Shown: piece by piece, positions 53-59,830 of the stretch
How the letters are laid out: every line of letters begins with the position of its first letter
How positions within the stretch are numbered: the stretch's first letter is position 1
Assembly (NCBI GenBank): GCA_963681965.1
Contig: OY820579.1
Location: 2,256,835 to 2,320,834 of the forward strand
Source of the DNA: a bacterium
GTDB lineage: Bacteria; Electryoneota; JAOADG01
Reading direction: 5' to 3'
Length of the DNA: 64,000 nucleotides
Translations under genes and position numbers: made by a program
Notes under the pieces: model-generated
Seen by the model: the letters and a program-made list of their open reading frames with translations, nothing else
The model's database searches: none
What the model was told of the DNA's origin: nothing

Positions 53-880
53 ATGGCAAAAGTCACCATCGATGGACAGCAAATTGATGTAGCAGACGGA
101 ATCACGATCCTCTGGGCAGCACGCCAGTTGGGACGCGACATTCCGACGTTCTGTTACTATCCGTGGTTCCCCCCGCAGGGGAATTGTCGGATCTGTCAGG
201 TCGAAGTGAAGGGGATGCCGAAACTCCAGATCTCGTGCAACATCCCGGTGCGTGATGGCATGGAGATCTTCACCGACAACGAGCGGGTATTGCAGGCACG
301 ACGCGCAGTGATGGAATTCTTGTTGATCAATCACCCCCTCGATTGCCCGATTTGCGATCAAGCCGGTGAATGCGACTTGCAGGATCTCGCCTTCCGGCAT
401 GGTGCCGCCGTCGGACGCTTCCGCGAAGCGAAACGAACGTTCCCGAAAGTCGATTACGGAGTGAAAATATCTCGCGAGATGAATCGCTGTATCCATTGCC
501 GTCGCTGTGTGAAGCTTGCCGAAGATTATATGGGTGTGTCGGTGATTGGCGCATTGGAACGCGGCGACCGTACCGAAATTGGTGCCTATATTGAAACGAT
601 CATCGACAGCCCGTATGCCGGTAACGTGATCGACATTTGTCCGGTCGGTGCGCTGACCGACAAGAAATTCCGATTTACCGCACGGGTGTGGGATCTTGAA
701 AATGTGAATGCGCATCGTCCCGATTGCGACAAGGGATGCAAGTGCAAATTGGGAATCTATCGCGGCAAGATTCATCGGGTCACGGCGCGATTCAATCAAT
801 ACGGTGTGATGGATGCGATGATCTGCGACGAATGTCGGTACAATCATTTCGATTTATCCGATTGGGTACTTGAGTTGTAG
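53..880 (+). CDS. nuoG: NuoG-like iron-sulfur protein (2Fe-2S plus 4Fe-4S binding region only, no large C-terminal domain)
   Basis: Cys motifs CYYPWFPPQGNCRICQV, HPLDCPICDQAGECDLQD and CIHCRRCVKL; directly upstream of nuoH. Track ORF starts at 20 inside a palindromic repeat, so start moved to Met12. Confidence 0.7.
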   Translation: MAKVTIDGQQIDVADGITILWAARQLGRDIPTFCYYPWFPPQGNCRICQVEVKGMPKLQISCNIPVRDGMEIFTDNERVLQARRAVMEFLLINHPLDCPICDQAGECDLQDLAFRHGAAVGRFREAKRTFPKVDYGVKISREMNRCIHCRRCVKLAEDYMGVSVIGALERGDRTEIGAYIETIIDSPYAGNVIDICPVGALTDKKFRFTARVWDLENVNAHRPDCDKGCKCKLGIYRGKIHRVTARFNQYGVMDAMICDECRYNHFDLSDWVLEL

Positions 881-1603
881 GTCGGAATTTATTCCGACAT
901 CATTTGATCTTTTTCATCTGTCATTGCGAAGCCCCGCAGGGGCTGTGGCAATCTATCATGTGATCTTTATTATTTTTGTATCCTGATTTGTCGTTGCGAG
1001 GACTGCAGCGAAGGAACGTGCGTAGCACTTCCGAAGCGGAAGGACGAAGCAATCTATCTTGTGATCTTTGTTATTTCATCTTGAAGTAGGGGCGGATCCC
1101 CGCATCCGCCCGTATCTTGTTCTTTTTTATCTTTTGATTTTTATTTCCGTAGGGGCGTATGGCATACGCCCTAAGCGGCAGGTAGCACCTGACGCAGATC
1201 TTTATGTAAGACACGGGCGGTTCGCGAACCGCCCCTACCAAAAACAATTTGGGCGTTTGCCCTATGTTGGAGGTGGGGCTTCAGCCCCGCCACATTGAAA
1301 TCTTTTTCTGTCATGCGAAGCCCCGCAGGGGCTGTGGCAATCTATCTTGTGATCTTTATTATTTTTGTATCCTGATTTGTCGTTGCGAGGACTGCAGCGA
1401 AGGAACGTGCGTAGCACTTCCGAAGCGGAAGGACGAAGCAATCTATCTTGTGATCTTTTCGTAGGTACAGACACTCTTGTCTGTACACGTCTGCCGAAGT
1501 CAGACACAACAATATGGTCGACAGACAAAAGTGTCTGTCGCTACTGAAAAGACACGGGCAGTTCGCGAACCGCCCCTACCAAAAAAAATAGGAAGAATAA
1601 TTC
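881..1603. repeat. REP/BIME-like cluster of GC-rich palindromic hairpins between nuoG-like and nuoH
   Basis: Contains gtcggaatttattccgac, gtaggggcgtatggcatacgccc, gggcggttcgcgaaccgcccctacc and two copies of a ~70-nt element tgtcgttgcgaggactgcagcgaaggaacgtgcgtagcacttccgaagcggaaggacgaagcaatc; the same modules recur window-wide. Confidence 0.8.
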
Positions 1604-2656
1604 GTGACCGATTTTCTCTGGCTAATCGTCGAAAAAGCGATCTTCAGCGTCTGTTTGCTAGGCTTCATCATGGGCTTTGCATCCTATGCGACGCTGGCAG
1701 AGCGCCGAATCGCGAGCTGGATGCAGGATCGAATCGGACCGAATCGCGCTGGACCGTGGGGCTTGTTCCAACCGATCGCGGACGGCGTCAAGTTCTTCAC
1801 CAAAGAGGATATCATCCCGGCGAATGTGCACAAAGCGTTTTATCTGCTCGCTCCGGGGATCGCCGCAATCCCGCCGCTGATGCTGGCTGCCGCGATTCCG
1901 TGGGGATATCAATTCGAGCTGTACGGTCGCGTGATTCAATTGCAGATGATCAATCTCAACATCGGAATTCTCTATATTTTCGCCTTCGCCTCGATCGGCG
2001 TCTACGGCGTGATGTTGGGCGGTTGGGCATCGAATAATAAATTCTCGCTGATGGGCGGGCTGCGTGCCAGCAATCAGATGATCTCGTACGAATTGGCGCA
2101 GGGCACTGCTGTCGTCGGTGTCTTGATCCTTGCCGGAACACTGTCGCTGCAGGATATCGTGGTGCAACAGGACACCGTCACCCGCTGGTTTGTCTGGCGA
2201 CAACCGATAGGGTTCTTCCTGTTTTTTGTCACGTCGCTGGCAGAATGTGCGCGTGTTCCCTTTGATCTTCCGGAAGCGGAAAATGAATTGGTCGGCGGAT
2301 ATCACACGGAATACAGTTCGATGAAATTCGGTCTGTTCCAGGTGTCGGAATACATCCACATGACGGTGACCGGCGGTTTGATTTCGGTGTTGTACTTCGG
2401 CGGTTGGCAAATCCCGTTCGTGCACATGACCGATCAACCGACGATTCTGATGGCGCTGCTCGGTTTCGGTGCGATGGTTGCGAAGACTGCGTTCTTTGTG
2501 TTTGTGTTCATGTGGTTGCGCTGGACACTGCCGCGCTTCCGCTACGATCAGTTGTTGCGTCTCGGCTGGAAAGTCTTGCTGGAAGCCGCATTCATCTGGG
2601 TAATTATCACTGCGATTTTAGTTTTGGCGTGGCCATTCTATACCACGTGGTTTTAG
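1604..2656 (+). CDS. nuoH: NADH-quinone oxidoreductase subunit H
   Basis: 350-aa multi-TM protein with typical NuoH/ND1 sequence; operon position; GTG start as in track. Confidence 0.9.
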   Translation: MTDFLWLIVEKAIFSVCLLGFIMGFASYATLAERRIASWMQDRIGPNRAGPWGLFQPIADGVKFFTKEDIIPANVHKAFYLLAPGIAAIPPLMLAAAIPWGYQFELYGRVIQLQMINLNIGILYIFAFASIGVYGVMLGGWASNNKFSLMGGLRASNQMISYELAQGTAVVGVLILAGTLSLQDIVVQQDTVTRWFVWRQPIGFFLFFVTSLAECARVPFDLPEAENELVGGYHTEYSSMKFGLFQVSEYIHMTVTGGLISVLYFGGWQIPFVHMTDQPTILMALLGFGAMVAKTAFFVFVFMWLRWTLPRFRYDQLLRLGWKVLLEAAFIWVIITAILVLAWPFYTTWF

Positions 2657-2959
2657 TATGGTCGGCGGGAGACACGTGTCCCGAGTAGTTTTGGAGGTGG
2701 GGTTTTAACCCCGCCAGATTTGAAATCTTTTTTCTGTCATTGCGAAGCCCCGCAGGGGCTGTGGCAATTGATCTTTTTGATCTTGTAGTAGGGACGGATC
2801 CCCGTATCCGCCCGCTCTTTTGATCTTTTGTATTTTGTCATTTTTTCCGTAGGGGCGAATCGCATTCGCCCCAAGCGGCAGGCAGCGCCTGACGCAGTAT
2901 TGTGGACACGGGCGATTCGCGAACCGCACCTACCAAAATCGAAAGAATAAATATCGAAT
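2657..2959. repeat. REP-like hairpin cluster (nuoH-nuoI intercistronic)
   Basis: ggaggtggggttttaaccccgcc, cattgcgaagccccgcaggggctgtggcaat, gtagggacggatccccgtatccgcccg, ccgtaggggcgaatcgcattcgcccc, gggcgattcgcgaaccgcacctacc. Confidence 0.75.
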
Positions 2960-3460
2960 ATGGCGATCAAGGTTTCTGAAAATAAATGGAAAATGACGTG
3001 GGGAGAGCGTCTCTACATCGCGCCGATCTGGGCGGGGATGCGGGTCACGCTGCGCCATTTATTCATGAAGAAATCTACCATCCCGTATCCGGAAGTAAAG
3101 GCGCCTGTATCGCCGCGCTGGCGCGGTCGGCACGTGTTGAAGCGCAACGAATTGGGTCAGGAACGCTGTGTCGGTTGTCAGATGTGCGAGCTGGCATGTC
3201 CTGCCGATGCGATCTATATCGAAGCGGCGGAAGTACCGCCGGAGAAGCGGCACGAACATCCGACCGAACGCTACGCGAAAGTATATGATATCGATATGTT
3301 GCGTTGTATCTTCTGCGGAATGTGCGAAGAGGCATGCCCGGAAGCGGCAATTTTCCTGACACCATTCTATGAAATTTGTGACGACAGCCGCGAGAAACTG
3401 ATTTACCACAAGGAGATGCTGACCGAAAAAGTCGGCGGACCGATCTGGTATAAGTTATAG
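2960..3460 (+). CDS. nuoI: NADH-quinone oxidoreductase subunit I (2x 4Fe-4S ferredoxin)
   Basis: Two CxxCxxCxxxCP motifs (CVGCQMCELACP, CIFCGMCEEACP); 166 aa; operon context. Confidence 0.9.
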   Translation: MAIKVSENKWKMTWGERLYIAPIWAGMRVTLRHLFMKKSTIPYPEVKAPVSPRWRGRHVLKRNELGQERCVGCQMCELACPADAIYIEAAEVPPEKRHEHPTERYAKVYDIDMLRCIFCGMCEEACPEAAIFLTPFYEICDDSREKLIYHKEMLTEKVGGPIWYKL

Positions 3461-3960
3461 GTGTTGGGTGGTAGGTTGTGGGTGTTGGGCAGTAGGGGCA
3501 ACCCACTGCGATCGCCCACCTTTGAAATCTTTTTTCCGTAGGGGCGTATCGCATTCGCCCCAAGCGGCAGGCAGCACCTGACGCAGATGTATATACGGAA
3601 GATAGAAGCGATGCGTGATCGCCTCTATCATAAAGAACCGGGCGTATGTTCTTCACCCGGAGGTGGGGCTTCAGCCCCGCCACAGCTTGTTCTTTTTTTA
3701 TCTTGTATCCTGATTTGTCGTTGCGAGGACTGCAGCGAAGGAACGTGCGTAGCACTTCCGCAGCGGAAGGACGAAGCAATCTATTTTGTGATCTTTCCGT
3801 AGGTACAGACACTCTTGTCTGTACATGTCTGCCGAAGGCAGACACAACAAATGTGGTCGACCGACAGGAGTGTCTGTCGCTACGGAAAAAAAACGGGCAA
3901 TCAGTATTCGCCCACAGCGAACAAAATTCGCACTAATTATTGACGAGAACTATTGAAACA
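3461..3960. repeat. REP-like hairpin cluster (nuoI-nuoJ intercistronic)
   Basis: ccgtaggggcgtatcgcattcgcccc, ggaggtggggcttcagccccgcc, the ~70-nt cgttgcgagg...gaagcaatc element, gtaggtacagacactcttgtctgtac hairpin. Confidence 0.75.
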
Positions 3961-4515
3961 ATGAATATCGACTCAACCACCATCGTCTTTTCGATCTTAT
4001 CCATCGTCGCGATCTTTTCCGCGATCATGGTGATCTCGCGCGCGAATCCGGTCGCGAGCGTATTGTGGTTGGTGTTGAATTTCTTTGCGCTGGCAGGCTT
4101 GTATGTCCTGCTCGGTGCGCATTTCCTCGCGGCGGTACAGATTATCGTATATGCCGGTGCGATCATGGTGTTGTTCCTATTTGTGGTGATGATGCTGAAC
4201 CTGAATACGATCGGTTCATTCGAACGCAGCGGACTCGCACTGCGTGTCGTGGGTGCGTTGATTGCCGGACTGATGTTGGTGATGATCGCGTTCATGGTGC
4301 GGCAGGATGTCAATTTCACGACGCCGGTTTCGCACACGCAATTTGCGATGGGAAGCGCCAAAGCGATCGGACTCGTGCTCTTCGATCAGTGGACGTTGCC
4401 GTTCCAGATTGTCGGTGTCATGATGTTGGCAGCCATCATCGGTGTCGTGGCGTTGGTGAAGCGCGAGCATGTGTCGAAGCCGCTCAGCGATCCTAGCGGA
4501 GGATCGGAACAATGA
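3961..4515 (+). CDS. nuoJ: NADH-quinone oxidoreductase subunit J
   Basis: Hydrophobic NuoJ-like protein; start moved from TTG (track 3940) to ATG at Met8; stop overlaps nuoK start (ATGA). Confidence 0.85.
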
Positions 4516-4823
4516 CCGGACCCATCGGACTGGAACACTATCTGGTATTGTCTGCGGTGTTGTTCTTTATCGGCGTTGCCGGTGTGCTGACACGACGCAA
4601 TGCCATCATCATTTTTATGTCGGTCGAATTGATGCTCAATAGCGTCAATCTGACGCTGGTTGCGTTTTCATCGTATCTGAAAAGCCCGACCGGACAGGTC
4701 TTTGCCTTTTTCGTGATTGCAGTTGCCGCCGCGGAAGTCGCCATCGGACTCGCAATCATTATTACCGTCTATCGCAATCGCAAGTCGATTCATATCGACG
4801 ATGTGAATCTGTTGAAAGAATAA
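4512..4823 (+). CDS. nuoK: NADH-quinone oxidoreductase subunit K
   Basis: 103-aa three-TM NuoK-like protein; translationally coupled to nuoJ. Confidence 0.9.
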
Positions 4824-5059
4824 TTTTTGGTGTTTTCCGTAGGGGCGTATGGCATACGCCCTGAGCGGCAGGCAACGCCTGACGCAGGTCTTTAAAAAAT
4901 TGAAGATGCGGGCGGTTCGCGAACCGCCCCTACCATGAAAAATGATTTGGGCGTATGCCATACGCCCCTACGGAAAGATAGATTGCCACAGCCCCTACGG
5001 GGCTTCGCAATGACAAATAATTCATCAACAACTCGAAACCAGGAATCGTCTGTAACGTA
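4824..5059. repeat. REP-like hairpin cluster (nuoK-nuoL intercistronic)
   Basis: ccgtaggggcgtatggcatacgccc twice in opposite orientations, gcgggcggttcgcgaaccgcccctacc, cccctacggggcttcgcaatg. Confidence 0.8.
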
Positions 5060-7048
5060 ATGGAAACTGCCGTTAACACTGCCAACTGGAATTATTTGAT
5101 CCTCATCCCGCTGCTTCCGCTCGCGGGCGTGTTGATCAATCTCCTGTGCTACAAAGCGAAATTGCCCGAGAAAGCAGTCGGCTGGTTCGCTTCATTGACA
5201 GTACTTTCCAGTTTCGCATTGTCGCTGATGGCATTCATCCAACTTCGCGCATTGACACCCGAACATCGTTCGATCGAAGTCGTCTTCCTGAAATGGATCG
5301 AAGTCGGTTCGCTCCATCTCGATTGGGCAATCCTGCTCGATCCTCTCTCGTCGCTGATGATGCTGATCATCACCGGTGTCGGCGGTGTGATCCATATTTA
5401 CTCCATCGGCTATATGCACGGCGACAAGAGCTTCAGCCGCTTCTTCATCTATCTCAATCTATTCGTCTTCTTCATGCTCTGGTTGGTGATGGGTAACTCC
5501 TTCGCCACCATGTTCATCGGTTGGGAAGGGGTCGGGCTCTGTAGCTACCTGCTCATCGGTTTCTGGTTCACCGATATGGCGAAAGCGAGTGCCGGAAAGA
5601 AAGCATTCGTCGTCAATCGCATCGGCGACTGGGGCTTTTTGCTGGCAATGCTGCTGCTATTCACGACATTCGGTTCGCTGCAATTCACCAAAGTGTTACC
5701 CGCTGCATTCGAGCAATATCCCAATGGCGCTCCGGTTATCACCGCGATCGCGCTGTTGTTCTTTGTCGGTGCTTGCGGTAAGTCGGCTCAGATTCCGCTC
5801 TACATCTGGCTCCCCGACGCCATGGCAGGTCCCACGCCGGTTTCTGCCTTGATCCATGCCGCCACGATGGTTACCGCCGGTGTCTATATGGTAGCGCGTG
5901 CCAATATCCTCTTTTCGCTGTCGCCGATTGCGATGCAGACGGTTGCAACGATCGGAGCGCTGACTGCGCTGTTTGCCGCGACGATCGGTTTGCGGCAGTG
6001 GGATATCAAGAAAGTGCTCGCCTATTCCACCGTGTCCCAGCTCGGATTCATGTTCCTCGGTGCCGGCGTCGGTGCCTATGAGACCGGTATCGCGCATGTT
6101 ATGACGCATGCGTTCTTCAAAGCCTGTTTGTTCCTCGGTTCCGGTGCCGTCATTCACGCAATGGAGCATGCGTTCCATCACAGCAACGTGCACCTCGATC
6201 CGCAGGATATTCGCTATATGGGTGGGTTGCGCAAAAAGATTCCACTCACCTTCTGGACATTTTTGGTTGCGACGGTCGCAATTGCCGGTATCCCCGGATT
6301 CGCGGGCTTCTTCAGCAAGGACGAAATTCTTTGGAAGACCTATGCCAGCGGTCATGTGGTGCTCTGGATTATCGCCACAATCACTGCCGGACTGACCGCA
6401 TTTTACATGTTCCGGCTCGTCTTCCTGACTTTCTTCGGCACTTTCCGGGGTGGCGCCGACGTCGAACCGCACGTCAAGGAAGTATCGCCACTGATGACCG
6501 GTGTCCTGATCGTGTTGGCATTCTTCTCGGTCTTTGGTGGTCATTTGGCAATTCCCGAATCGCTTGGTGGTCATTTCGTTATCGGCGAGTGGTTGGAACC
6601 GGTCGTAGCGAATTCCCGCTCGCTGGCAACGCTCGCATTCTATAAAGAGCACCATCCATTATCGTTGGAACTCGGCTTGATGGCGCTTTCCGTCGTCGTC
6701 GCACTGATCGGTATCGGCATCGCCGCGCTGCTCTACTGGCGTAAGAAGCAGGATCGCGAAGTATTGCTCCGCCGCGCTACCGGCTATGCCAATGTGCTGG
6801 AAAATAAATATTGGGTCGATGAGATCTACGAAATGCTTATCGTCAAACCGCTCTACAATCTGTCGGTGTTCTTCTGGAAAGTTGCCGACGGGATGGCGAT
6901 CGACGGATTCATCAACGGTACCGGTCGCTTGGTCGATGCGATCGGCGGTAGTTTGCGCCGGCTTCAAACCGGATTTATTTCCAATTACGCTTTACTCATG
7001 TCGGTCGCGATCGCATTTGTCGTCGGCTGGATGTTGTTCGGACGCTAG
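5060..7048 (+). CDS. nuoL: NADH-quinone oxidoreductase subunit L
   Basis: 662-aa antiporter-like subunit with typical NuoL/ND5 sequence. Confidence 0.9.
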   Translation: METAVNTANWNYLILIPLLPLAGVLINLLCYKAKLPEKAVGWFASLTVLSSFALSLMAFIQLRALTPEHRSIEVVFLKWIEVGSLHLDWAILLDPLSSLMMLIITGVGGVIHIYSIGYMHGDKSFSRFFIYLNLFVFFMLWLVMGNSFATMFIGWEGVGLCSYLLIGFWFTDMAKASAGKKAFVVNRIGDWGFLLAMLLLFTTFGSLQFTKVLPAAFEQYPNGAPVITAIALLFFVGACGKSAQIPLYIWLPDAMAGPTPVSALIHAATMVTAGVYMVARANILFSLSPIAMQTVATIGALTALFAATIGLRQWDIKKVLAYSTVSQLGFMFLGAGVGAYETGIAHVMTHAFFKACLFLGSGAVIHAMEHAFHHSNVHLDPQDIRYMGGLRKKIPLTFWTFLVATVAIAGIPGFAGFFSKDEILWKTYASGHVVLWIIATITAGLTAFYMFRLVFLTFFGTFRGGADVEPHVKEVSPLMTGVLIVLAFFSVFGGHLAIPESLGGHFVIGEWLEPVVANSRSLATLAFYKEHHPLSLELGLMALSVVVALIGIGIAALLYWRKKQDREVLLRRATGYANVLENKYWVDEIYEMLIVKPLYNLSVFFWKVADGMAIDGFINGTGRLVDAIGGSLRRLQTGFISNYALLMSVAIAFVVGWMLFGR

Positions 7049-7062
7049 GGGTGTACTAAAGC

Positions 7063-8565
7063 ATGATGCCGTTACTCAGTACACTGATTATGATCCCGCT
7101 GATTGGCGCAGTAGCCATGCTGCTCCTGCCTCGACGCGCCGAAACACTCCAGCGCGGGGTTGCGTTCCTGACCACCGCAGTGACCTTTGCACTGAGTCTG
7201 GGTCTCTGGTTCGGTTTCGATCGGAATACGCCCGGCTATCAGTTTATGGAGCGCTTCGAGTGGATTCCGTCACTTGGTATCACTTACATCGTCGGTATCG
7301 ACGGTATCAGCCTCCTGCTGATCCTGCTAACCACGCTGCTGATGCCGATCTGCATCCTCGCGTCGTGGGATCCGATCAAGACCCGCATCAAAGAATATTA
7401 TTTCAGCTTCCTGCTGCTTGAAGCCGCCATGATCGGCGTGTTTGCCGCACTCGACCTGTTCCTGTTCTATGTCTTCTGGGAATCGGTATTGATCCCGATG
7501 TACTTCCTGATCGGTATCTGGGGTGGTAAAAATCGGCTTTATGCCGCCATCAAGTTCTTCTTGTACACGTTGGTCGGCAGTTTGCTGATGTTGATCGGAA
7601 TTCTGTATCTCTATTTCAATTACGGGCACACCTTCGATCTGATTCATCTGTCTGCGATGTTGAAGCAACACCCGATTGCGTCGAATGTACAAATCTGGTT
7701 GTTTGCCGCATTCTCACTCGCATTCGCAATCAAAGTCCCGATGTTCCCATTCCACACTTGGTTGCCGGATGCGCACACCGAAGCGCCGACAGCCGGTTCG
7801 ATCATTCTGGCTGGTGTCCTGTTGAAGATGGGTACTTACGGTTTCGTGCGATTCTCGATTCCGCTGTTTCCCGATGCCACTAGCGTACTATCGCCGATTG
7901 TGGTTATTCTAGCCATCATCGGAATTATCTACGGCGCGCTTGTCGCAATGGTGCAGACCGATATCAAACGTCTGGTCGCATATTCATCGGTGAGTCACCT
8001 CGGCTTCGTGATGCTCGGACTCTTTGCATTGAATCATCAGGGTCTTTCCGGTGCCGTGCTGCAGATGGTCAATCACGGACTTTCCACTGGCGCCCTGTTT
8101 TTATTGGTCGGTGTTATTTACGAACGGCGCCATACCCGCGATATCGAAGCCTACGGCGGTATTGCCGCATCGATACCGGTATTCTCGACGATCTTCTTGA
8201 TTGTCACCATGTCGAGTATCGGTTTGCCGACTCTGAACGGCTTTGTCGGCGAATTTCTAATCCTGAATGGTGCCATGCAGGCGAGTTGGCAGTGGACGGC
8301 ATGGGCTGCCACCGGCGTGATTCTCAGTGCGATTTACATGCTATGGATGGTCCAGCGAGTATTCTTCGGACCGATCAAGCATGAAGAAAATCGCAATCTG
8401 AAAGATATGAATTGGAAGGAATTGGCTGCGGTGATTCCGCTACTGATCTTCATTGTGTGGATCGGTATTTATCCCGATACCTTCTTAAAAGTGTTGGATC
8501 TCCCGGTCGCGGATTTACTCTCGAACCGCACCGGAATTCATTTACAAACTTTATTACTGAAATAG
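7063..8565 (+). CDS. nuoM: NADH-quinone oxidoreductase subunit M
   Basis: 500-aa antiporter-like subunit (NuoM/ND4). Confidence 0.9.
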   Translation: MMPLLSTLIMIPLIGAVAMLLLPRRAETLQRGVAFLTTAVTFALSLGLWFGFDRNTPGYQFMERFEWIPSLGITYIVGIDGISLLLILLTTLLMPICILASWDPIKTRIKEYYFSFLLLEAAMIGVFAALDLFLFYVFWESVLIPMYFLIGIWGGKNRLYAAIKFFLYTLVGSLLMLIGILYLYFNYGHTFDLIHLSAMLKQHPIASNVQIWLFAAFSLAFAIKVPMFPFHTWLPDAHTEAPTAGSIILAGVLLKMGTYGFVRFSIPLFPDATSVLSPIVVILAIIGIIYGALVAMVQTDIKRLVAYSSVSHLGFVMLGLFALNHQGLSGAVLQMVNHGLSTGALFLLVGVIYERRHTRDIEAYGGIAASIPVFSTIFLIVTMSSIGLPTLNGFVGEFLILNGAMQASWQWTAWAATGVILSAIYMLWMVQRVFFGPIKHEENRNLKDMNWKELAAVIPLLIFIVWIGIYPDTFLKVLDLPVADLLSNRTGIHLQTLLLK

Positions 8566-8588
8566 TGCAACATTAGCGAAACAGATCG

Positions 8589-10040
8589 ATGACTGAAACA
8601 CTACTCACGCAACTGACGACATTGGGTCCGACACTATGGATTGCGGCACTGGCTATGCTGGCGCTGGTGATCGATTTGATCGTTCCCAAACATGAGCGCG
8701 ATATTAAATCAGTCGTGTTAGTCGGTCTCGCTCTGATTTTCCTCTTTACATTCAAGCGGGTTGGCAGTACCGGCGCTGCTTTCTACGGGTCGATCGTCCA
8801 AACCGATTTCACGACTTTCTTCGACTTGTTGTTTACCGCGATTGCCTTTTTTGTGATCATTCTTTCCGGCCCATATTTTCAGCGCACTGGTATGAAGCTG
8901 CTGGAAACGATGGTGCTGATGCTGTTTGCGACCTCCGGCGCTATGCTGATGACGCTCGCGAACGACATGCTCATTCTCTTCCTCGGTCTCGAATTGATGT
9001 CGATCTGTCTCTATGTACTGGCAGGAATGTTGCGAAATCGCGAGAAATCGAATGAAGGAGCGTTGAAATATTTCCTGTTGGGAGCATTTGCTACCGGGTT
9101 CTTCCTCTACGGTATCGCGCTGCTCTACGGTATCTCCGGTTCGACGTTGTATGGCGATATTTCCGCGTGGGTGCTGGGTCGCAATTTCTCGGTCGGTGGA
9201 CTGTTCTGGGCAGGTATCGGATTATTGCTGATCGGATTTTTCTTCAAGACTGCGACAGTACCCTTCCATTTCTGGGCACCCGATGCCTACGAAGGGGCAC
9301 CGACGCCCGTCACAGCATTTTTCAGTGCTACCCCGAAAGCCGCGGCATTCGCCGCTTTGATTAAAGTATTTGGCGTGGCGCTGCCGTCGGTGAATAGTGA
9401 AATATCCGATCTACTCGCGCTGTTTGCCATTCTGACGATGATCATCGGGAACTTTGTCGCGCTGCAACAATCTTCGGTCAAACGCATGTTGGCATATTCG
9501 TCGATTGCCCATGCCGGTTATTTACTGGTTGCAGTGGTCTCGGCAAGCAGCGACGGCTATTCCGCACTGATGCTGTATCTCGCGGCGTATGCGGCTACCA
9601 ATCTGGGTGCCTTCACCATTGCCTATCTGGTGAATCGCAAGAACGAAGGAAATTATAGTTTCGATAATTTCAACGGTCTGGGTGCGAAACATCCCTATTA
9701 TGCCATGATGATGGCGATCTTTATGATCTCGCTGGCGGGTATTCCCCCGACTGGTGGATTCATGGGGAAATACTACATCTTCTTTGCCGCGGTTCGTAGC
9801 GGTCACCTCTATTTGGCGATCGCGATGGCGCTGATTTCGGTTGTGTCGGTGTATTATTATCTTCGTGTGATTGTCCACATGTACATGAAACCGGCAGCAG
9901 AGAATTACGAATCGATCGACACGAACAAGGTGGTGGGGATTGCGTTACTTGGATGTGTCGCAGTGATCCTGCTGATCGGTGTCATGCCAGAGCCGTGGTT
10001 CCAGTGGCTGCAGGCGAGTGTCTGCGCCATCGGCATGTAA
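8589..10040 (+). CDS. nuoN: NADH-quinone oxidoreductase subunit N
   Basis: 483-aa antiporter-like subunit (NuoN/ND2); last gene of the operon. Confidence 0.9.
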   Translation: MTETLLTQLTTLGPTLWIAALAMLALVIDLIVPKHERDIKSVVLVGLALIFLFTFKRVGSTGAAFYGSIVQTDFTTFFDLLFTAIAFFVIILSGPYFQRTGMKLLETMVLMLFATSGAMLMTLANDMLILFLGLELMSICLYVLAGMLRNREKSNEGALKYFLLGAFATGFFLYGIALLYGISGSTLYGDISAWVLGRNFSVGGLFWAGIGLLLIGFFFKTATVPFHFWAPDAYEGAPTPVTAFFSATPKAAAFAALIKVFGVALPSVNSEISDLLALFAILTMIIGNFVALQQSSVKRMLAYSSIAHAGYLLVAVVSASSDGYSALMLYLAAYAATNLGAFTIAYLVNRKNEGNYSFDNFNGLGAKHPYYAMMMAIFMISLAGIPPTGGFMGKYYIFFAAVRSGHLYLAIAMALISVVSVYYYLRVIVHMYMKPAAENYESIDTNKVVGIALLGCVAVILLIGVMPEPWFQWLQASVCAIGM

Positions 10041-10528
10041 TTCATCTTTCCCAACACCCATCTTTTCGGTGGCGCAGGCCTCCGAGCCTGCGATTCGCTT
10101 CTTTTAAGTATGTCGGAATTTATTCCGACTCTTTTTTTTCTTTTGGCGGTTCGCGAACCGCCCGTTTTTCTTTCTTTTCCCACCTCCCAATACCTACCAC
10201 CCACCACCCATCATTTCCGTAGGTCAGAACTTGTTCTGACCATCTCCGGTATCTTTTTCTGGTATCTAGACCTGTCATTGCATAGCCGACGTAGGCTGCT
10301 TTGGTAGCGGCGGACTTTAGTCCGCGTATTGATTTTTACAAGATTCTACAAGAATTGCGGACTAAAGTCCGCCACTACCAAAAGATGGGTGTTAGGGAAT
10401 AGGTGGTGGTAATCGGGAAAAGGTTAAAATAAGGGAGGGCGTATGCACCCACCCGTTCTTTTTATTTTTTATCCATAAATACACTTGATTTGTTTTGATC
10501 TTACCGGTAAATTACAACTGTTGTATAT
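10041..10528. repeat. REP/MITE-like cluster downstream of nuoN
   Basis: gtcggaatttattccgac, ggcggttcgcgaaccgccc, gtaggtcagaacttgttctgacc, and two inverted copies of ggtagcggcggactttagtccgc around a ~35-bp AT-rich core (MITE-like). Confidence 0.8.
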
Positions 10529-10558
10529 GTGATGTTATTCGACAATGATGAGGTGATT

Positions 10559-12295
10559 ATGAAAACCAGCTTTCGAACTTTCCTGCTTCTGTTTATTACC
10601 CTTTCCTTATTCACACTTGTGAATGCACTACCCCTTTCCGGGGTGAAAACCGTTGGTGGTACCAATCCTGACTTTCCCTCATTAACTGCTGCAATCGACT
10701 CGCTCAATGCGCTCGGCGTTGCCAACGGGGGTGTGACATTCATACTGCGTGGCGGAACCTATCGCGAGCATTCCCGTGTGATTGTTACACCGACGAATAT
10801 CAATCGTCCGATTCACTTCACAGTCGAAGATGGTGCTGAAGTCGCAATTGAAATCGATTCGCTGCCAGGCGATACAATCGGATTTCAACTGCAAAGTCGT
10901 CATGTCACGATCGATGGCAGTTGGACGAACGATACGCTCGGACAACACCTCGCGATCGTAGGAACCAACTTACGCATCGGTGTGTGGTTCGCTAACGGTT
11001 CCGACTCGTCGATTGTGAAGAATTGTCGCATCACGCTACCGCGATCCATTACTCACGATCAGACAGAGGGAATCTGGGTCGGAGCATATGACTATTCAAT
11101 AATTGATGGCATCCGAATTCGACAATGTGCTATCGAAGGGGGGCAGGATGGAATTCGAGTGATTGCGCATTCGTCATTCGCAATGAATGGTATTGAAATT
11201 TCGAATTGCGAAATTAGCAATTTTTATTGGAACGGAATTTGGTTATACGCTTACAGTTGCGCAAAGATCTTCAATAACCGAATCTACCAAACAGTGGTGA
11301 CTACCGAAGTTGGAATCGGCATCTATGGCGGCGACTCTTGTCAGATCGTTGCCAATAAAATTGGTCCATTGCTAAGCTCAGTACGCGTGATTGGAATTAT
11401 CGACGGGTCGCACAATACAATTACCAATAATTTCATCAGGCTTGGTGATATGTCGAATTGCGCTGTGTACGGGATTCTAAGTCAGGTTGGTGCCGGGAAT
11501 AAATACCTGTTTAATACGGTTGTAACGTTCGGAACTTCGCGGATCGATTCGATTTCTACCGGGAATAGTACTTGTTTTTGGTCGACGGGATTTAATGTTG
11601 ATTCGCTTTGGGGAAATATTTTCGTCAATACCCGCACGGGACCCGGTCAACACCACGATTGTCTCTATATCGATACGGGACATGATCCGCGTTTCAGTAA
11701 CTATAATCTCTTCTACACCGCTTACGATACGGTGCTCCGAAACTGCTTTCTCGAGCGGCACGATACGGCACACTTTACCGGTTTCATTCATTCTGCGCGC
11801 TGGTTTCCGCGCGATTCCAATTCGATCTTCGGTCTTCCGGATTTTTCCTCCAATAACGATTTACATCTTCGGCACGACACAACCTCAATCGTTCACCATC
11901 GTGCACCACGCCACTGGCTTGTACCGACCGATATCGACGGAGAACCACGTTCTGCGCCTTACTGCGATATTGGTGCCGATGAATGGGATTCGGTGATGAC
12001 TGCTATTTGGCAGAATACTACGACGTTGCCATTGCAGTTTTCTCTGCATCCGAATTATCCCAATCCGTTCAATTCATCGACCACGATCTCGTATGAATTG
12101 CCGCATGCAGCGAATGTCGAGATTAAATTGTTCGATCTGACGGGTCGCGAAGTATCAACGCTCGTGCAGCAATGGCAGGGAGCGGGGAGGTATCGCTTGC
12201 CATTCGCGGGTCGCAATTTATCGTCGGGAACCTATTTTGTCCGGATGCAAGCTGGTGAATTTGAGAAGACGCAGAAGATCGTGTTATTACGCTAA
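10559..12295 (+). CDS. Secreted right-handed beta-helix protein with T9SS C-terminal sorting domain
   Basis: Signal peptide MKTSFRTFLLLFITLSLFTLVNA; parallel beta-helix-like repeats; C-terminal LFDLTGREV...GTYFVRMQ...QKIVLLR. Confidence 0.7.
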   Translation: MKTSFRTFLLLFITLSLFTLVNALPLSGVKTVGGTNPDFPSLTAAIDSLNALGVANGGVTFILRGGTYREHSRVIVTPTNINRPIHFTVEDGAEVAIEIDSLPGDTIGFQLQSRHVTIDGSWTNDTLGQHLAIVGTNLRIGVWFANGSDSSIVKNCRITLPRSITHDQTEGIWVGAYDYSIIDGIRIRQCAIEGGQDGIRVIAHSSFAMNGIEISNCEISNFYWNGIWLYAYSCAKIFNNRIYQTVVTTEVGIGIYGGDSCQIVANKIGPLLSSVRVIGIIDGSHNTITNNFIRLGDMSNCAVYGILSQVGAGNKYLFNTVVTFGTSRIDSISTGNSTCFWSTGFNVDSLWGNIFVNTRTGPGQHHDCLYIDTGHDPRFSNYNLFYTAYDTVLRNCFLERHDTAHFTGFIHSARWFPRDSNSIFGLPDFSSNNDLHLRHDTTSIVHHRAPRHWLVPTDIDGEPRSAPYCDIGADEWDSVMTAIWQNTTTLPLQFSLHPNYPNPFNSSTTISYELPHAANVEIKLFDLTGREVSTLVQQWQGAGRYRLPFAGRNLSSGTYFVRMQAGEFEKTQKIVLLR

Positions 12296-24168: not shown

Positions 24169-24745
24169 AGTTCGATCCTATTCTGATTGGACACGGATAA
24201 TATACTAAATTTCCAGCGAATGAAACCGGTTTCATTTTATAGCAATTGACGGGTATCCATGAATCTTTTATTCTCTTGTAGAGGAGTATCCCCGCAAGCC
24301 CCAGTTCTTCTTCACTTTTCGTTATCCTTTATCCTAGAGTAGGGGCGGGTCCCCGCGCCCGCCCGATCTTGTATCTTCTTTTCATCTTTCCCCTAACACC
24401 TACCACCCATTACCCAACACCCATTTTGTTGATTTGTCGTTGCGAGGAAAACCTTGCGGCAGCGAAGCGGCAAGGTTTAGCGAACACCTTTGAATCTTGT
24501 AAATGTCAGGTTCGCAACACAGCGAAGGAACGTGCGCAGCACTTCCGAAGCGAAGAGACGAAGCAATCTATCTTTTGTAGCCGCAGGCTTTAGACTGCGC
24601 TCTTGAATCTTTTTTATCATTTCCCAACACCCATCACCTTTTCCCTACTACCCATCCATTCCGTGGGTCGGAATTTATTCCGACTCCTCTTGTGGTAGGG
24701 ACGTTCTTACACGTCCGCCCGATGAGGCGATGCAGTCTCTTATTT
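24169..24745. repeat. REP-like hairpin cluster
   Basis: gtaggggcgggtccccgcgcccgcccg, ~70-nt cgttgcgagg element variant, gtagccgcaggctttagactgcg, gtcggaatttattccgac, gtagggacgttcttacacgtccgcccg. Confidence 0.75.
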
Positions 24746-25700
24746 TGTAGGTCAGAACTTGTTCTGACCACCTCTTGTGTCCAAAATTGATGCGGGCGGG
24801 CGCGGGGACCCGCCCTTACTGGAAAATTTGTACGATCGTATTGCTGTAGGTCAGAACTTGTTCTGACCACCTCTTGTGTCCAAAAATGATGCGGGCGGGC
24901 GCGGGGACCCGCCCCTATTGGAAAATTTGTACGATCTTATTGCTGTAGGTCAGAACTTGTTCTGACCACCTCTTGTGTCCAAAAATGATGCGGGCGGGCG
25001 CGGGCGCCCGCCCCTACTGGAAAATTTGTACGATCGTATTGCTGTAGGTCAGAACTTGTTCTGACCACCTCTTGTGTCCAAAATTGATGCGGGCGGGCGC
25101 GGGGACCCGTCCCTACTGGAAAATTTGTTCGATCTTATTGCTGTAGGTCAGAACTTGTTCTGACCACCTCTTGTGTCCAAAAATGATGCGGGCGGGCGCG
25201 GGGACCCGCCCCTACTGGAAAATTTGTACGATCATATTGCGGTAGGTCAGAACTTGTTCTGACCACCTCTTGTGTCCAAAAATGATGCGGGCGGGCGCGG
25301 GGACCCGCCCCTATTGGAAAATTTGTACGATCGTATTGCTGTAGGTCAGAACTTGTTCTGACCACCTCTTGTGTCCAAAAATGATGCGGGCGAGCGCGGG
25401 GACCCGCCCCTACTGGAAAATTTGTACGATCATATTGCGGTAGGTCAGAACTTGTTCTGACCACCTTTTGTGTCCAAAAATGATGCGGGCGGGCGCGGGG
25501 ACCCGCCCCTATTGGAAAATTTGTACGATCGTATTGCTGTAGGTCAGAACTTGTTCTGACCACCTCTTGTGTCCAAAAATGATGCGGGCGGGCGCGGGGA
25601 CCCGCCCCTATTGGAAAATTTGTACGATCGTATTGCTGTAGGTCAGAACTTGTTCTGACCACCTCTTGTGTCCAAAATTGATCGGGCGGGGCGGGGACAG
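24746..25700. repeat. Tandem array, ~10 copies of a 99-bp two-hairpin unit
   Basis: Unit gtaggtcagaacttgttctgacc...gatgcgggcgggcgcggggacccgcccctactggaaaatttgtacgatcgtattgct starts at 24746, 24846, 24945, 25044, 25143, 25242, 25341, 25440, 25539, 25638; only point differences between copies. Confidence 0.9.
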
Positions 25701-25828
25701 AGGATACAAGAAAGAAAAACACAGGCTGAAGCCTGCGGCTACGTTAGTCAAATACGCGGACATTAGTTCGCCGCTACGAAAAAACGGCACATCGGATGAT
25801 GTGCCGCTGAAAAATTCATCGGGAAGAA

Positions 25829-26356
25829 CTAGTTGCCGGACTTGTGTCCATCATGTTTTTCTTCTTTCAATTCCTTTTGCTCTTCCTTCATTTCCCGTTT
25901 CATTTCTTTCTTTTCGTCGCGCATTTCTTTGCGCTCACCCATACTGTCACGCATTTCTTTATGCATTTTGTCGAACTGCTCTTTCTGTTCCGGAGTCAGA
26001 ATCGCGCCGATCTCGCTATTCAATTTTTTCAACAGCTCGCGCTCATGCTGAATAAGCGCTTTCTGAGTGATCGTCGTATCCATCCGAAGCTGCATCGTTT
26101 TGGCGTGATGTGCTGCTACGATGTCGCGAATCGATGTTTGCTGTTTTTCGGTCAATTTCAATTGGTCGGTCAAGCGCTCGATAAATTTATCGCCTCGTTT
26201 GCCATCCATCATTGGATGACCGCGCATTTTTTCCGGTTTATCGGATTTTACCGCCTTCTCCGAAGCAGTCGGTTGATCGGTTTCGGCATACGCGCAAGTA
26301 CCCAATACAAAAACTGCAAGTAACATCAGTATGGTGATTGTTCTAGTTAATCTCAT
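25829..26356 (-). CDS. Periplasmic LTXXQ-motif protein (Spy/CpxP/ZraP-like)
   Basis: Signal peptide MRLTRTITILMLLAVFVLGTCAYA; LTEKQ and LTPEQ motifs; charged helical C-terminus. Confidence 0.6.
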   Translation of the reverse strand: MRLTRTITILMLLAVFVLGTCAYAETDQPTASEKAVKSDKPEKMRGHPMMDGKRGDKFIERLTDQLKLTEKQQTSIRDIVAAHHAKTMQLRMDTTITQKALIQHERELLKKLNSEIGAILTPEQKEQFDKMHKEMRDSMGERKEMRDEKKEMKREMKEEQKELKEEKHDGHKSGN

Positions 26357-31391: not shown

Positions 31392-32217
31392 CGGTGTTTC
31401 CTCCTCTTGGTGAACAGTCCCGGTATGAAACGAAAACTTCCGACAAAAAAACGCAAGCCGAAAATCAATCCGCTCAGTCGATCCGGGGGCAGCGGTTGCA
31501 CCTGTTTATGATCTCGCCACTGTAGCCGCGAAAGTTTCGAGAGAATCTCAATACTACAGTTACAATATGCATTCAAAGCCGGATAAAAGCAATATGCAAC
31601 AACGATTGCGAATGAAAATCAATCTTGATAACACATTTGCACACAACTTCCCAGAAGTGATTACTATTTATACAGATATTAGCTACTTACCGGAGGTAAA
31701 GGATGCTCTCTGCAGATGATCGGTTGATTTGTCGTTGCGAGGACTGCAGCGAAGGAACATGCGAAGCATTTCCGAAGCGGAAGGACGAAGCAATCTATCT
31801 TGAATCCTGTTTTCTCTAGTAGGGGTGGGTCCCCGCGCCCGCCCGTTCTTGTATCTTTATTTCTCTTTTCCCAATCCCCAATGCCTATTTCTCCATCACC
31901 CATTCTATGCGTCAGGCGCTGCCTGCCGCTTGGGGCGAATGCGATTCGCCCCTACGGAAAAAACGCGGACTAAAGTCCGCCGCTACCATGATGAATTGTC
32001 AGGCTGAAGCCTAACTTCCGATTTCAAGAGACAGATACACCGAACCTGCGATTCGCTTCCTTTCCGTAGGTCAGAACTTGTTCTGACCATTTCTTGTATT
32101 TTTTTTCTCTTTTCCCACCACCTACAACCCACTACCCACCACCCGTTTGGTTGATTTGTCGTTGCGAGGACTGCAGCGAAGGAACATGCGAAGCATTACC
32201 TCAGTTTCTTCCCGACG
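31392..32217. repeat. REP-like hairpin cluster
   Basis: Two copies of the ~70-nt cgttgcgagg element, gtaggggtgggtccccgcgcccgcccg, ccgtaggggcgaatcgcattcgcccc (reverse), gcggactaaagtccgccgctacc, gtaggtcagaacttgttctgacc. Confidence 0.75.
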
Positions 32218-33017
32218 GTGCATCTCTCCTACAAATTGAGCAAACTAAATGAATTGCAATTGAGTTACAGTCGGCGCGTGCGGCGACCGGATGGTGAGGA
32301 TTTGAATCCATTCCCGGAATATCGCGATCCGTTGAATGTCTGGGCGGGAAATCCGAAACTGTTGCCGGAATATGTGAATGTGCTGGAACTCGGTTGTCAA
32401 TATCTGAATGGCGGATTGATGTTGGTACCGGCGCTGTTCTACCGCAACACGAATAATCGCTTTACCCGGGTCACGCAGACACTGCACGATTCGATCGTCT
32501 TGACGACCATGGAAAATCTGGCTTCCGATCAATCCGGCGGTATCGAATTGAATGTGTCGTGGAATCATCAGAAATCGTTTTCGCTTCACGGATACAGTAG
32601 TGTGTTTTTCGATCAGATCGATGCCACCAATCTTAACAATACAATGGAAAGAAGAATGTTACGACGTGGACCAGCAATATCACGATGGATGTCAATTTGA
32701 CCGAGACCAGCCGGTTTCAACTCAACTCGAATTACAATTCGGCACGATTGACGGCGCAAGGGAAAAACAAACCGTCGTATTCGCTCAATTCCGGTTTTCG
32801 ACAAGAATTGTTTGAAGGAAAATTGACGATCACTGCGACCGTCACGGATATCTTCAAGACGATGAAACGGGAATTCGAGTTGAATATCCCGACGCTGCAG
32901 CAAACATCGGTGAATAAGCGCGACTCGCGCGTAATGTACGTCGGATTGAATTATCGCTTCGGTTCGCAGAAGAAGAAAGCGAAAGAAGACCAGATTAAAT
33001 ACGATGACGGGTTGTAG
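32218..33017 (+). pseudogene. Remnant of an outer-membrane beta-barrel protein gene (C-terminal ~265 codons, frameshifted)
   Basis: No signal peptide or N-terminal domain; reading frame switches near 32650-32700 between track ORFs 32218-32700 and 32685-33017; ends with beta-barrel-like ...YVGLNYRFG; 5' side abuts the repeat cluster. Confidence 0.45.
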
Positions 33018-33040
33018 AATAGATCGCCGTAAAATGTATA

Positions 33041-33068
33041 CGGGCGCTTTGCAGCGCCCGTTTTTTTT
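33041..33068 (+). terminator. Rho-independent terminator
   Basis: cgggcgctttgcagcgcccg hairpin followed by an 8-T run. Confidence 0.6.
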
Positions 33069-33134
33069 GTGTTTCTTACACTCGTTCGAATTTCGTGGTG
33101 AAGTGCCGCAGGATCGGTGGTTCGTAGGTGGTCC
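33068..33134. repeat. Left direct repeat: diverged duplicate of the tnaA 3' end (putative att remnant)
   Basis: gtgtttcttacactcgttcgaatttcgtggtgaagtgccgcaggatcggtggttcgtaggtggtcc is ~92% identical to 36341-36405; on the minus strand it still encodes ...TYEPPILRHFTTKFERV-stop. Confidence 0.7.
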
Positions 33135-33201
33135 TTAAAAGCTAGTTCAACATTCGAACTTAGAATATCAATTAATTGATTGCTAGATAATCTGAATTGG
33201 A

Positions 33202-34011: not shown

Positions 34012-34031
34012 TGAGCACTCAAAATTATTAA

Positions 34032-34652: not shown

Positions 34653-34703
34653 AATAATAAATTAGAGATTAATCGCTTTAAATTGAAATGAATTACCGGT
34701 TAA

Positions 34704-36130: not shown

Positions 36131-36300
36131 TACCTATGCAAACTTCATTCGATCACAGTAGTAAAAAAATCCATAAATAGTTTCTTCATGAGGCAATTAG
36201 TATTCTTGTAAAGATAATAATAAACTAAACAAATTCAAAATGGTATTTGGTAAAATATAAACAATCAACTTACATGTTGACGAGATATCTAAAAAATAAT

Positions 36301-59071: not shown

Positions 59072-59830
59072 TTCATGATATGAAGTAGTAGGGGCGGTTC
59101 TCTGCGACCGCCCTTTTTTTATTTCGTAGGGGCGAACCACGAAGTGCTTGCCGAAGGCAAACGATAAAAAGATACAAGATCGGGGGCATGCGGGGATGCC
59201 CCCCTACTAAAAAAGAAAGAGTCGGAATAAATTCCGACTCACGGAAAAGATGGGTGATGGGGGATAGGTGTCGGGTGATGGGAAAAGATAAAAACAGATA
59301 CAAGAACGGGCGGTTCTCTGCGACCGCCATTTTTTTTATTTCGTAGGGGCGAACCACGAAGTGCTCGCCGAAGGCAACCGATAAAAAGATACAAGATCGG
59401 GGGCATGCGGGGATGCCCCCCTACTAAAAAAGAAAGAGTCGGAATAAATTCCGCCCCACGGAAAAGATGGGTGATGGGGGATAGGTGTCGGGTGATGGGA
59501 AAAGATAATAACAGATACAAGAACGGGCGGTTCTCTGCGACCGCCATTTTTTTTATTTCGTAGGGGCGAACCACGAAGTGCTCACCGAAGGCAAACGATA
59601 AAAAGATACAAGATCGGGGGCATGCGGGGATGCCCCCCTACTAAAAAAGAAAGAGTCGGAATAAATTCCGACCCACGGAAAAGATGGGTGATGGGGGATA
59701 GGTGTCGGGTGATGGGAAAAGATAAAAACAGATACAAGATCGGGCGGTTCGCGAACCGCCCCTACTAAAAAAATGAGTCGGAATAAATTCCGCCCCACGG
59801 AAAAGAAGATACTCGCCTCTGTGTGGTGCT
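59072..59830. repeat. BIME-like array: ~3 tandem copies of a ~216-bp unit
   Basis: gtaggggcggttctctgcgaccgcc at ~59088, 59308, 59524, each followed by gggggcatgcggggatgcccccctac, gtcggaataaattccgac and a gatgggtgatgggggataggtgtcgggtgatggg tract. Confidence 0.85.

Follow-up and report, generated by a model that had tools for sequence, protein, structure and literature searches.

A nuo (complex I) operon with unusually long, repeat-filled spacers between its genes occupies the beginning of a 64,000-nt stretch, hereafter the window, from a bacterium of the GTDB lineage Electryoneota, JAOADG01 (assembly GCA_963681965.1, contig OY820579.1, positions 2,256,835 to 2,320,834 of the forward strand). 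The window sits within a single 4.34-Mb contig (ENA ERZ21878129 contig_1). Together with 7 kb upstream (L081) it forms the 71-kb region that was read, and with 10 kb downstream (L211) an 81-kb region; gene layout was taken from the open reading frame (ORF) list, the sequence and the gene calls of the source record with their Pfam labels (Table 1). The upstream 7 kb completes the operon as nuoABCDEFG'HIJKLMN, and all 14 nuo ORFs are intact, colinear and of normal length. The true start of the short nuoG-like gene is probably the ATG at position 53, which gives 275 amino acids as in relatives, rather than position 20. Across the clade this subunit has just 274–281 amino acids and comprises the N-terminal Fe-S domains without the molybdopterin-like C-terminal domain.

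In agreement with an earlier note on this DNA, the gene coordinates give spacers of 723, 303, 500 and 236 nt for the G/H, H/I, I/J and K/L junctions, an overlap of nuoJ with nuoK, and tight spacing of nuoL-M-N (14 nt for L/M, 23 nt for M/N). The expansion reaches further than that note had described, as three junctions upstream of the window are filled likewise (C/D 801 nt, E/F 248 nt, F/G 468 nt). Altogether 7 of the 13 nuo junctions are expanded, by 236–801 nt each and ~3.3 kb in total, and the operon spans 16.0 kb compared with 12.7 kb in the compact relative L087. That such junctions are typically short was borne out by 53–74 Bacteroidota operons, in which the medians of the same junctions lie at 10–43 nt and the I/J junction reaches 107 nt at most; the summed H-to-N spacer is exceeded in only one of 53 Bacteroidota operons.

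Self-comparison of the 71 kb identified 97, 82, 66 and 78% of the G/H, H/I, I/J and K/L spacers as repeated DNA, and repeated bases make up 66% of intergenic vs. 2.3% of coding sequence. RNA folding energies for the four spacers amount to -275, -112, -200 and -112 kcal/mol, corresponding to z values of -6.9, -3.2, -6.6 and -11.7 against 30 mononucleotide shuffles; the last value belongs to a 130-nt super-hairpin in K/L that is closed by a G2 element on the plus and another on the minus strand. All seven expanded spacers, including those upstream, fold far better than shuffled sequences, and the description of the four noted spacers as filled with hairpin repeats is thereby confirmed. Per kb, 9.7 hairpins with a stem of 7 bp or more were counted in intergenic DNA, as opposed to 2.7 in coding DNA; the window contains 129 hairpins where ~38 are expected after shuffling. 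In Rfam 15, tRNA alone passed gathering scores within the window and positions 860–5080 remained without any match at E ≤ 1. A CRISPR array was ruled out: whole units of 99, 101, 217 and 321 bp repeat at 93–99% identity, and because entire multi-element units are themselves repeated, there are no unique spacers. Spacer-encoded small proteins were also rejected as an explanation, the eight ORFs of 60–97 amino acids being composed of repeat units and lacking a Pfam match.

When intergenic hairpins were oriented by their flanks, a common design emerged, consisting of a T-rich lead, (CC)GTAG, stem, loop, stem and (N)ATCTTGT. The tetramer GTAG is the most enriched one at the hairpin foot; it stands at exactly one foot in 83 of 168 intergenic hairpins and at both feet in none, while only 5 of 147 coding hairpins carry it at one foot. 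GTGG is found on 12 further intergenic hairpins. Units are GC-rich and 18–26 nt in size, with stems of 7–12 bp and loops of 3–8 nt, and fold singly at -9.5 to -24 kcal/mol (z = -2.7 to -3.6). Behind the one tag and common T-rich flanks stand at least 14 fully self-complementary stem families (G1–G14), for example GGGCGGTT/AACCGCCC, GGGCGTAT/ATACGCCC, GTCAGAAC/GTTCTGAC and GTCGGAAT/ATTCCGAC. Two additional families, C1 and C2, have the form TGTC-ATTGC…GCAAT-C and enclose a variable inner hairpin; a literature search on the sequence of these C-type elements gave nothing relevant. In total, 154 elements of 16 families were classified in the 71 kb (~2.2 per kb), all within 17.2 kb of intergenic DNA. 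None is truly intragenic, since two apparent cases are explained by the mis-set nuoG start and a spurious ORF. More stem variants are present in L211 and in the related stretch L085.

Clusters are built head-out: of 23 regions, 20 open at the left with an element whose tag is on the plus strand and 18 finish at the right with a minus-strand element, ++--, +++--- and +- being the usual strand strings. The TAG stop of nuoG (878–880) is supplied by the GTAG tag of the first element and the protein end is unchanged compared with four relatives. A second tag-derived stop was seen where the GTAG of a G4 element (62188–62213) overlaps the TAG of a BNR/T9SS (type IX secretion system) gene at 59981–62191. 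The tag at one end, GTGG variants, several families per genome with compensated stems, a preference for head-out (HH) dimers, clusters, tandem reiteration and donation of TAG stops are all traits of the GTAG superfamily of repetitive extragenic palindromic (REP) sequences (Di Nocera et al., 2013; PMC3733652). Judged by this anatomy, the elements are REPs of the GTAG-tagged superfamily; in conjunction with the compact operons of relatives (see below), the label "REP clusters" between nuo cistrons is well chosen.

The same elements are by no means confined to nuo. By gap type, ~105 lie between co-directional, 36 between divergent and 9 between convergent genes, refined gene calls shifting ~7 of them from the divergent to the co-directional class, and orientation relative to transcription is without preference (56 same, 49 opposite). 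Coding density is 76%; non-coding DNA accounts for about a quarter of what was read, and REP material for two thirds of this non-coding part. Some 4.5 kb past the window end, the etfB/etfA junction (155 nt, L211:16392–16546) contains three GTAG REPs. All of them are sense-oriented and their stems do not occur in the window, which brings the number of families above 16. On the strength of these REPs, etfB/etfA is a second conserved operon that has been invaded. Because the same REPs fill most intergenic DNA, the nuo spacers are an extreme but ordinary case and not a device specific to complex I. If the window is representative, several thousand elements would be expected genome-wide. A tandem array of a 99-bp unit (Table 1) is an instance of the same elements expanding outside nuo.

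Four related lineages were picked by NuoH homology at 74–79% identity (L082/L083, L085, L087 and L209), and L210 (58%) served as outgroup. In L087 (74%) and L209 (76%) the nuo operon is compact, with every junction at or below ~20 nt, and the upstream gene order serine hydroxymethyltransferase (SHMT)-NrdR-nuoA is that of the window, rpiB preceding in both relatives; the operon of L210 is compact too. In L082/L083 (79%), C/D, D/E and I/J are occupied by small non-repeat ORFs, and E/F and F/G show a few hairpins of the GGAGGT type. L085 (77%, GCA_030247525.1), finally, bears GTAG REPs at F/G, H/I, I/J and K/L, partly of window families (G2, G3-like, G9-like) in differing order and positions, and its G/H and M/N junctions contain hairpins of the C or GGAGGT type. 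With regard to nuo spacing in related genomes, a comparison proposed in the earlier note, compactness thus holds for L087, L209 and L210, while GTAG REPs are present at nuo junctions in L085 as well. As close relatives keep compact nuo operons, the spacers are to be seen as insertions; L087, L209 and L210 together indicate that the compact form is ancestral and the clusters are lineage-specific.

Copies are often near-identical. The six 101-nt units in C/D agree at ~99%, a 139-nt block is common to F/G and K/L (87% identity) and a 171-nt block to G/H and H/I (81%). These units and blocks show that clusters have grown for the most part through duplication on the spot and through the copying of blocks from one spacer to a neighbor, and, going by copies that are 87–100% identical, the insertions and duplications in nuo are recent. 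The junctions A/B, B/C, J/K and L/M are unexpanded in all three insert-bearing lineages (three lineages only), a pattern consistent with selection guarding overlapping or tightly coupled gene pairs. With regard to the nuo operons of relatives, the small non-repeat ORFs encode 151, 71, 74 and 100 amino acids at C/D, D/E, I/J and G/H, and nuoN of L085 is called as two ORFs (8341–9796), where a frameshift is possible.

A mobilizing enzyme was sought in several ways. Y1_Tnp is absent among the 30 proteins of the window, and tblastn with E. coli RayT and six RayT proteins of Bacteroidota/Chlorobi type yielded no match in the window, L081–L087 or L211. The G2 pattern (GTAGGRGCGWATNGCATWCGCC) occurs in at least 120 metagenomic stretches, and none of those listed contains the other families. 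As the GC content of the stretches listed ranges from 29 to 70%, they stem from many unrelated organisms. Approximately seven of them (L103, L146, L171, L189, L191 and L205, with L165 uncertain) carry a RayT-family gene with a G2 REP inside or within ~100 bp, compared with a chance expectation of ~0.1 by our rough estimate; on account of this adjacency G2-type REPs are regarded as RayT-associated. Their family, labeled "REP element-mobilizing transposase RayT" by JGI, comprises at least 8000 proteins and occurs in Bacteroidales, Flavobacterium, Chitinophagales and Chlorobium; its members can be aligned with E. coli RayT at the HUH motif and in the WQRNYYEH…YI.NP segment. With a metagenomic RayT as protein query, the 4.34-Mb contig was absent among the best 120 of the at least 8000 family members. 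Since 81 kb of 4.34 Mb were searched, mobilization by a resident RayT is what we infer; such a RayT would be encoded in this genome and may serve the other 13 stems as well via the common tag.

In metagenomic RayT-family genes such as those of L146 and L189 (Table 1) a head-out G2 dimer is located inside the reading frame, behind the HUH motif and ahead of the C-terminal motif shared with E. coli RayT (alignment A2), where it encodes peptides such as RGVSHTP…GVCDTPLR. The in-frame insert is hypervariable in length, with proteins of 173–288 amino acids and tandem copies in P0129. A RayT gene of this kind seems to contain its own substrate.

Comparison with known systems places the elements among GTAG REPs, such as E. 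coli REP/BIME, Pseudomonas REP/REPIN and Stenotrophomonas SMAG, which are likewise tagged, extragenic hairpins in head-out dimers and arrays and are also found between co-directional operon genes. Most REPs are known from Proteobacteria, whereas the NuoH of the present host is 50–58% identical to sequences from Bacteroidota and Calditrichota; in a scan of genome contigs the best NuoH identity to Bacteroidota was 54%. In contrast to the GTAG REPs known, T-rich flanks are common to at least 14 stem families in only 71 kb, the elements form a very high load, divergent regions contain many of them, and a cognate transposase was not seen in 81 kb of the present genome. CGTC-superfamily REPs possess a CGTC or TGTC tag, an 8–9 bp stem beginning with AT, a 4–5 nt loop and a short CCA-like tail (PMC3733652). 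Like members of that group (Neisseria dRS3, Rickettsia RPE-4/6 and alphaproteobacterial families), C1 and C2 exhibit a TGTC tag, an AT-first stem and a C-rich tail and occur in clusters, but their outer stem has 5 bp around a nested hairpin or, in C1, around a 40-nt composite. As C1 in addition folds no better than shuffled sequences (z = -1.4), the relation of C1 and C2 to the CGTC superfamily is one of resemblance. With the REPtron/RAYT system (TnpA-REP, E. coli RayT, COG1943) the shared features are the REP identical to G2 in or beside metagenomic RayT genes and the conserved HUH and C-terminal motifs; unlike in that system, the metagenomic dimer lies inside the reading frame instead of flanking the gene. 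Repeats of the MITE (miniature inverted-repeat transposable element) type (Correia, ERIC/IRU, RUP, Nezha) are similarly short, abundant, intergenic and co-transcribed and can enter operons, but measure 100–300 bp and have terminal inverted repeats and target-site duplications, in contrast to the single tagged hairpin of 20–26 nt found here.

We consider it likely that the nuo spacers are clusters of GTAG-superfamily REPs, together with some TGTC/CGTC-like elements, that represent non-autonomous selfish DNA moved by RayT and tolerated by the host. Each unit is a hairpin, rich in GC, that leaves GTAG or GTGG unpaired at one foot; by analogy with known REPs it would spread when its single-stranded form is moved, most likely by a RayT-type transposase of the Y1 (HUH) class whose gene lies elsewhere in the genome. 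Clusters grow as units duplicate locally in tandem and as multi-REP blocks are copied from one nearby spacer to another. In this lineage they have colonized most intergenic DNA, 7 of 13 nuo junctions included, but are absent from coding sequence and from the overlapping or tightly spaced junctions A/B, B/C, J/K and L/M; selection is presumed to shape this pattern, the clusters persisting where they are harmless. On the transcript, the clusters are thought to be co-transcribed with nuo, and polymerase probably reads through as they lack U-tracts. Stem-loops located directly after stop codons may slow 3'-to-5' exonucleases as a side effect, which would not be the cause of their presence. Of the possibilities raised in the earlier note, tolerated selfish insertions fit better than regulatory hairpins, given the occurrence in gaps of all orientations and in etfB/etfA, the lack of conservation in relatives and the 87–100% identity of copies.

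Several points weigh against this reading. No RAYT/Y1 gene exists within the 81 kb read of the 4.34-Mb contig, for 13 of the 14 GTAG families no neighboring transposase was seen, and local growth owes much to duplication instead of transposition. Neutrality, moreover, is argued from distribution and lack of conservation, and sense hairpins within 15 nt of the stop at four junctions would also suit a stabilizing role. Alternatively, the clusters could be selected intercistronic RNA elements which, situated 3' of nuoC, E, F, G, H, I and K, would stop 3'-to-5' exonucleases or act as transcription attenuators, dividing the 14-gene mRNA into segments of unequal half-life and in this way setting subunit ratios. 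The strong folding of all seven spacers agrees with this, as do the integrity of the 14 ORFs, hairpins without U-tracts that permit read-through, and the sense orientation of the stop-proximal element in 18 of 22 cases, among them the hairpins at most 15 nt from the stops of nuoE, F, G and K. A precedent is provided by malEFG, whose stem-loops act as barriers to 3'-exonucleases, and by widespread differential operon decay (Dar and Sorek, 2018; PMC5927463). The clusters resemble these cases in having U-tract-free stem-loops directly 3' of a cistron, but involve seven junctions with up to 14 units each, far beyond what a stabilizer needs, and the likeness concerns position and predicted fold. 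The REP between malE and malF in particular is reportedly an mRNA stabilizer, a finding ascribed to Newbury and colleagues in 1987. The rule that the stop-proximal element runs with transcription and the start-proximal one against it results from cluster architecture, because the head-out form holds in all region types, divergent and convergent ones included. Elements spread through most of the intergenic DNA read, without orientation bias relative to transcription, and sense-strand G.T mismatches, which would remain compatible with pairing as G.U, are not significantly more frequent than A.C mismatches (17 vs. 11). Relatives with 74–76% NuoH identity are compact, L085 differs in elements as well as junctions, and the copies here are near-identical and tandemly amplified. 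Selected RNA elements are thus an unlikely explanation; nothing in the sequences indicates selection for a stability effect, although an incidental influence of the stem-loops on segment stability is likely.

Somewhat less likely still is a co-option of the clusters as punctuation. Stop-proximal hairpins would then protect upstream segments whose stability sets subunit ratios, the last antisense REP would leave an A-rich leader for re-initiation, and the REP-free junctions A-B-C, D-E, J-K and L-M-N would mark translationally coupled sub-modules. Downstream cistrons keep unstructured, mostly A-rich leaders of 25–70 nt. The same leaders could be taken to support a split of nuo into several transcription units by terminating REPs and new promoters in the spacers, which at 236–801 nt could accommodate them. 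The evidence for termination is sparse. Only one sense-strand REP in the internal nuo spacers of the window, G3, has a T-rich tail (1090–1111), and read-through of the internal clusters is plausible for this reason; the suggestion that the hairpins act as partial terminators is weakly contradicted. Weak terminator-like hairpins that are not REPs lie at 2666–2683 and 3917–3931, and the region as a whole has 19 terminator-like sites vs. 12.8±3.9 in shuffles, a terminator being taken as a GC-rich hairpin with a U-tract 0–2 nt behind it on the transcribed strand. After nuoN, two REP hairpins (10112–10129 and 10145–10162) are followed by clean T-runs and look terminator-like. As for promoters, sigma-70-like sites number 5 vs. 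11.2 in shuffles and the Bacteroidota-type -7 motif TAnnTTTG is missing in six of eight spacers, although neither consensus need be that of the host; TAnnTTTG occurs three times in total (1.4 expected), 236–625 nt from the start codon. The spacers moreover consist almost wholly of repeats that are also found in non-promoter contexts, and a split of the operon appears very improbable. A metagenome assembly and a highly repetitive region could finally give rise to repeat-induced misassembly. Here, the spacers lie on one 4.34-Mb contig that recurs in two sample records, every nuo ORF is intact and in colinear order, REP units join stop codons with precision, and GTAG REPs at nuo junctions are also seen in a related lineage that was assembled independently (GCA_030247525.1 and a Logan contig), so that an artifact of this kind can hardly be credited at all.

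The elements, regarded as tolerated REPs, are of a known type; what is notable is the host lineage, how many stem families share one tag, and the load on a conserved operon. GTAG REPs are best known from Proteobacteria, and here they have bloomed in an uncultured, Bacteroidota-related lineage. A highly conserved, tightly packed operon has gained 3.3 kb without gene loss. It offers a test bed for the tolerance of mRNA to structured inserts, for junctions protected by selection and for REP diversification behind a fixed tag. For annotation it is a warning, as many spacer ORFs of 50–100 amino acids are repeat-derived and not genes.

Table 1. Genes, spacers and repeat elements of the nuo region and related features. 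Positions refer to the window unless another stretch is named.
Feature	Position	Strand	Details
nuoG-like	53..880	+	short form, 275 amino acids; Pfam domains; C-terminus same length as in relatives
G/H spacer	881..1603	+	at least 14 repeat units
REP G8	877..898	+	GTAG-GTCGGAAT-ttat-TTCCGAC
C2	918..953	+	TGTC-ATTGC-GAAG-[CCCC gca GGGG]-CTGTG-GCAAT-C, CGTC-like REP
C1	988..1054	+	65-nt composite TGTC-GTTGCGAGGA…GACGAAGCAATC; with T-rich linker forms the 101-nt unit present in six tandem copies in nuoC/D
REP G3	1086..1111	+	GTAG-GGGCGGAT…ATCCGCCC; terminator-like on sense strand
REP G2 + companion	1149..1195	+	GTAG-GGGCGTAT-ggc-ATACGCCC; companion hairpin GCGGCAGGT-agc-ACCTGACGC
REP G1	1215..1238	-	GGGCGGTT-cgcg-AACCGCCC-CTAC, minus-strand tag
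REP G14	1269..1293	-	GTGG tag on minus; plus reads GGAGGT-GGGGC-ttca-GCCCC-GCCAC
Duplicate of 917-1069	1307..1458	+	C2 + C1 + linkers, 153 nt, 98.7% identity
Head-out REP dimer	1461..1544		REPIN-like: G9(+), small central hairpin, G10(-); -36.9 kcal/mol
REP G1	1556..1579	-	24 nt 5' of nuoH start; A-rich unstructured leader CTACCAAAAAAAATAGGAAG remains
nuoH	1604..2656	+	ORF, Pfam
H/I spacer	2657..2959	+	
Hairpin	2666..2683		H/I
REP G14 variant	2693..2717		H/I
C2	2734..2769		H/I
REP G3	2788..2813		H/I
REP G2 variant + companion	2846..2895		H/I
REP G1	2910..2933	-	H/I
nuoI	2960..3460	+	ORF, Pfam
I/J spacer	3461..3960	+	
G-rich heptamer run	3461..3490		I/J
G4-like REP	3491..3516		I/J
REP G2 + companion	3538..3584		I/J
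Unique hairpin	3601..3629		I/J
REP G14	3659..3683	-	I/J
Multi-REP block	3703..3899	+	197 nt, 93% identical to 1365-1560 of G/H
C1	3715..3781		I/J
G9/G10 head-out dimer	3799..3883		I/J
Hairpin	3893..3915		I/J
nuoJ	3961..4515	+	ORF, Pfam; no insertion before nuoK
nuoK	4512..4823	+	4-nt overlap with nuoJ
K/L spacer	4824..5059	+	
REP G2 + companion	4839..4885	+	K/L
REP G1	4910..4933	-	K/L
REP G2	4949..4971	-	K/L
C2	4981..5016	-	K/L
nuoL	5060..7048	+	repeat-free block nuoL-N
nuoM	7063..8565	+	repeat-free block nuoL-N
nuoN	8589..10040	+	repeat-free block nuoL-N
REP cluster 3' of nuoN	10041..10558	+	G13, G8, G1 core, G7, G11 pair
Tandem array	24648..25838		99-bp unit = G7 REP(+) + G5 REP(-), ~11 copies, 95-97% identity
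Tandem multi-REP unit	50496..51334		321 bp, three copies, 93-99% identity
Tandem multi-REP unit	59092..59750		217 bp, three copies, 93-99% identity
Tandem 101-bp unit	L081:2598-3180		six copies in nuoC/D
Further G-rich heptamer runs	10378-10424, 46499-46545, 50697-50743, 54242-54288, 56851-56935, 57396-57442, 59243-59289, 63800-63846		
Heptamer runs, C-rich strand	L081:600-640, L081:860-910		
RayT with internal G2 dimer	L146:204-812	-	REPs 398-419 and 451-472
RayT with internal G2 dimer	L189:9213-9851		
Small non-repeat ORFs	L082:5166-5621, 6919-7134, 11654-11878		
Small non-repeat ORF	L085:1595-1897		

Besides the hairpins, G-rich heptamer runs of the type (GGGTGDT/GGGGAAT)n form a separate module of 30–50 nt that is met repeatedly between REPs. 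We take them to be similar to cyanobacterial STRR heptamers, and by their composition they could form G-quadruplexes.

A low-GC island at 33000–36200 (28–38% vs. ~50%) is nearly repeat-free; alongside a RelA/SpoT-domain protein and a nucleotidyltransferase it encodes two proteins that lack a Pfam match, and it is probably recently acquired DNA. An OMP_b-brl_3 remnant (32140–33017) consists of the overlapping fragments 32218–32700 and 32685–33017, which start at profile position 164 and adjoin a truncated C1 element (32140–32200), an arrangement that suggests deletion or rearrangement at a REP cluster. The minus-strand ORFs 56576–56991 (136 amino acids) and 57267–57731 (154 amino acids) are probably spurious and repeat-derived; at 56576–56854 the source record has a 92-amino-acid ferredoxin on the plus strand instead of the minus-strand ORF.

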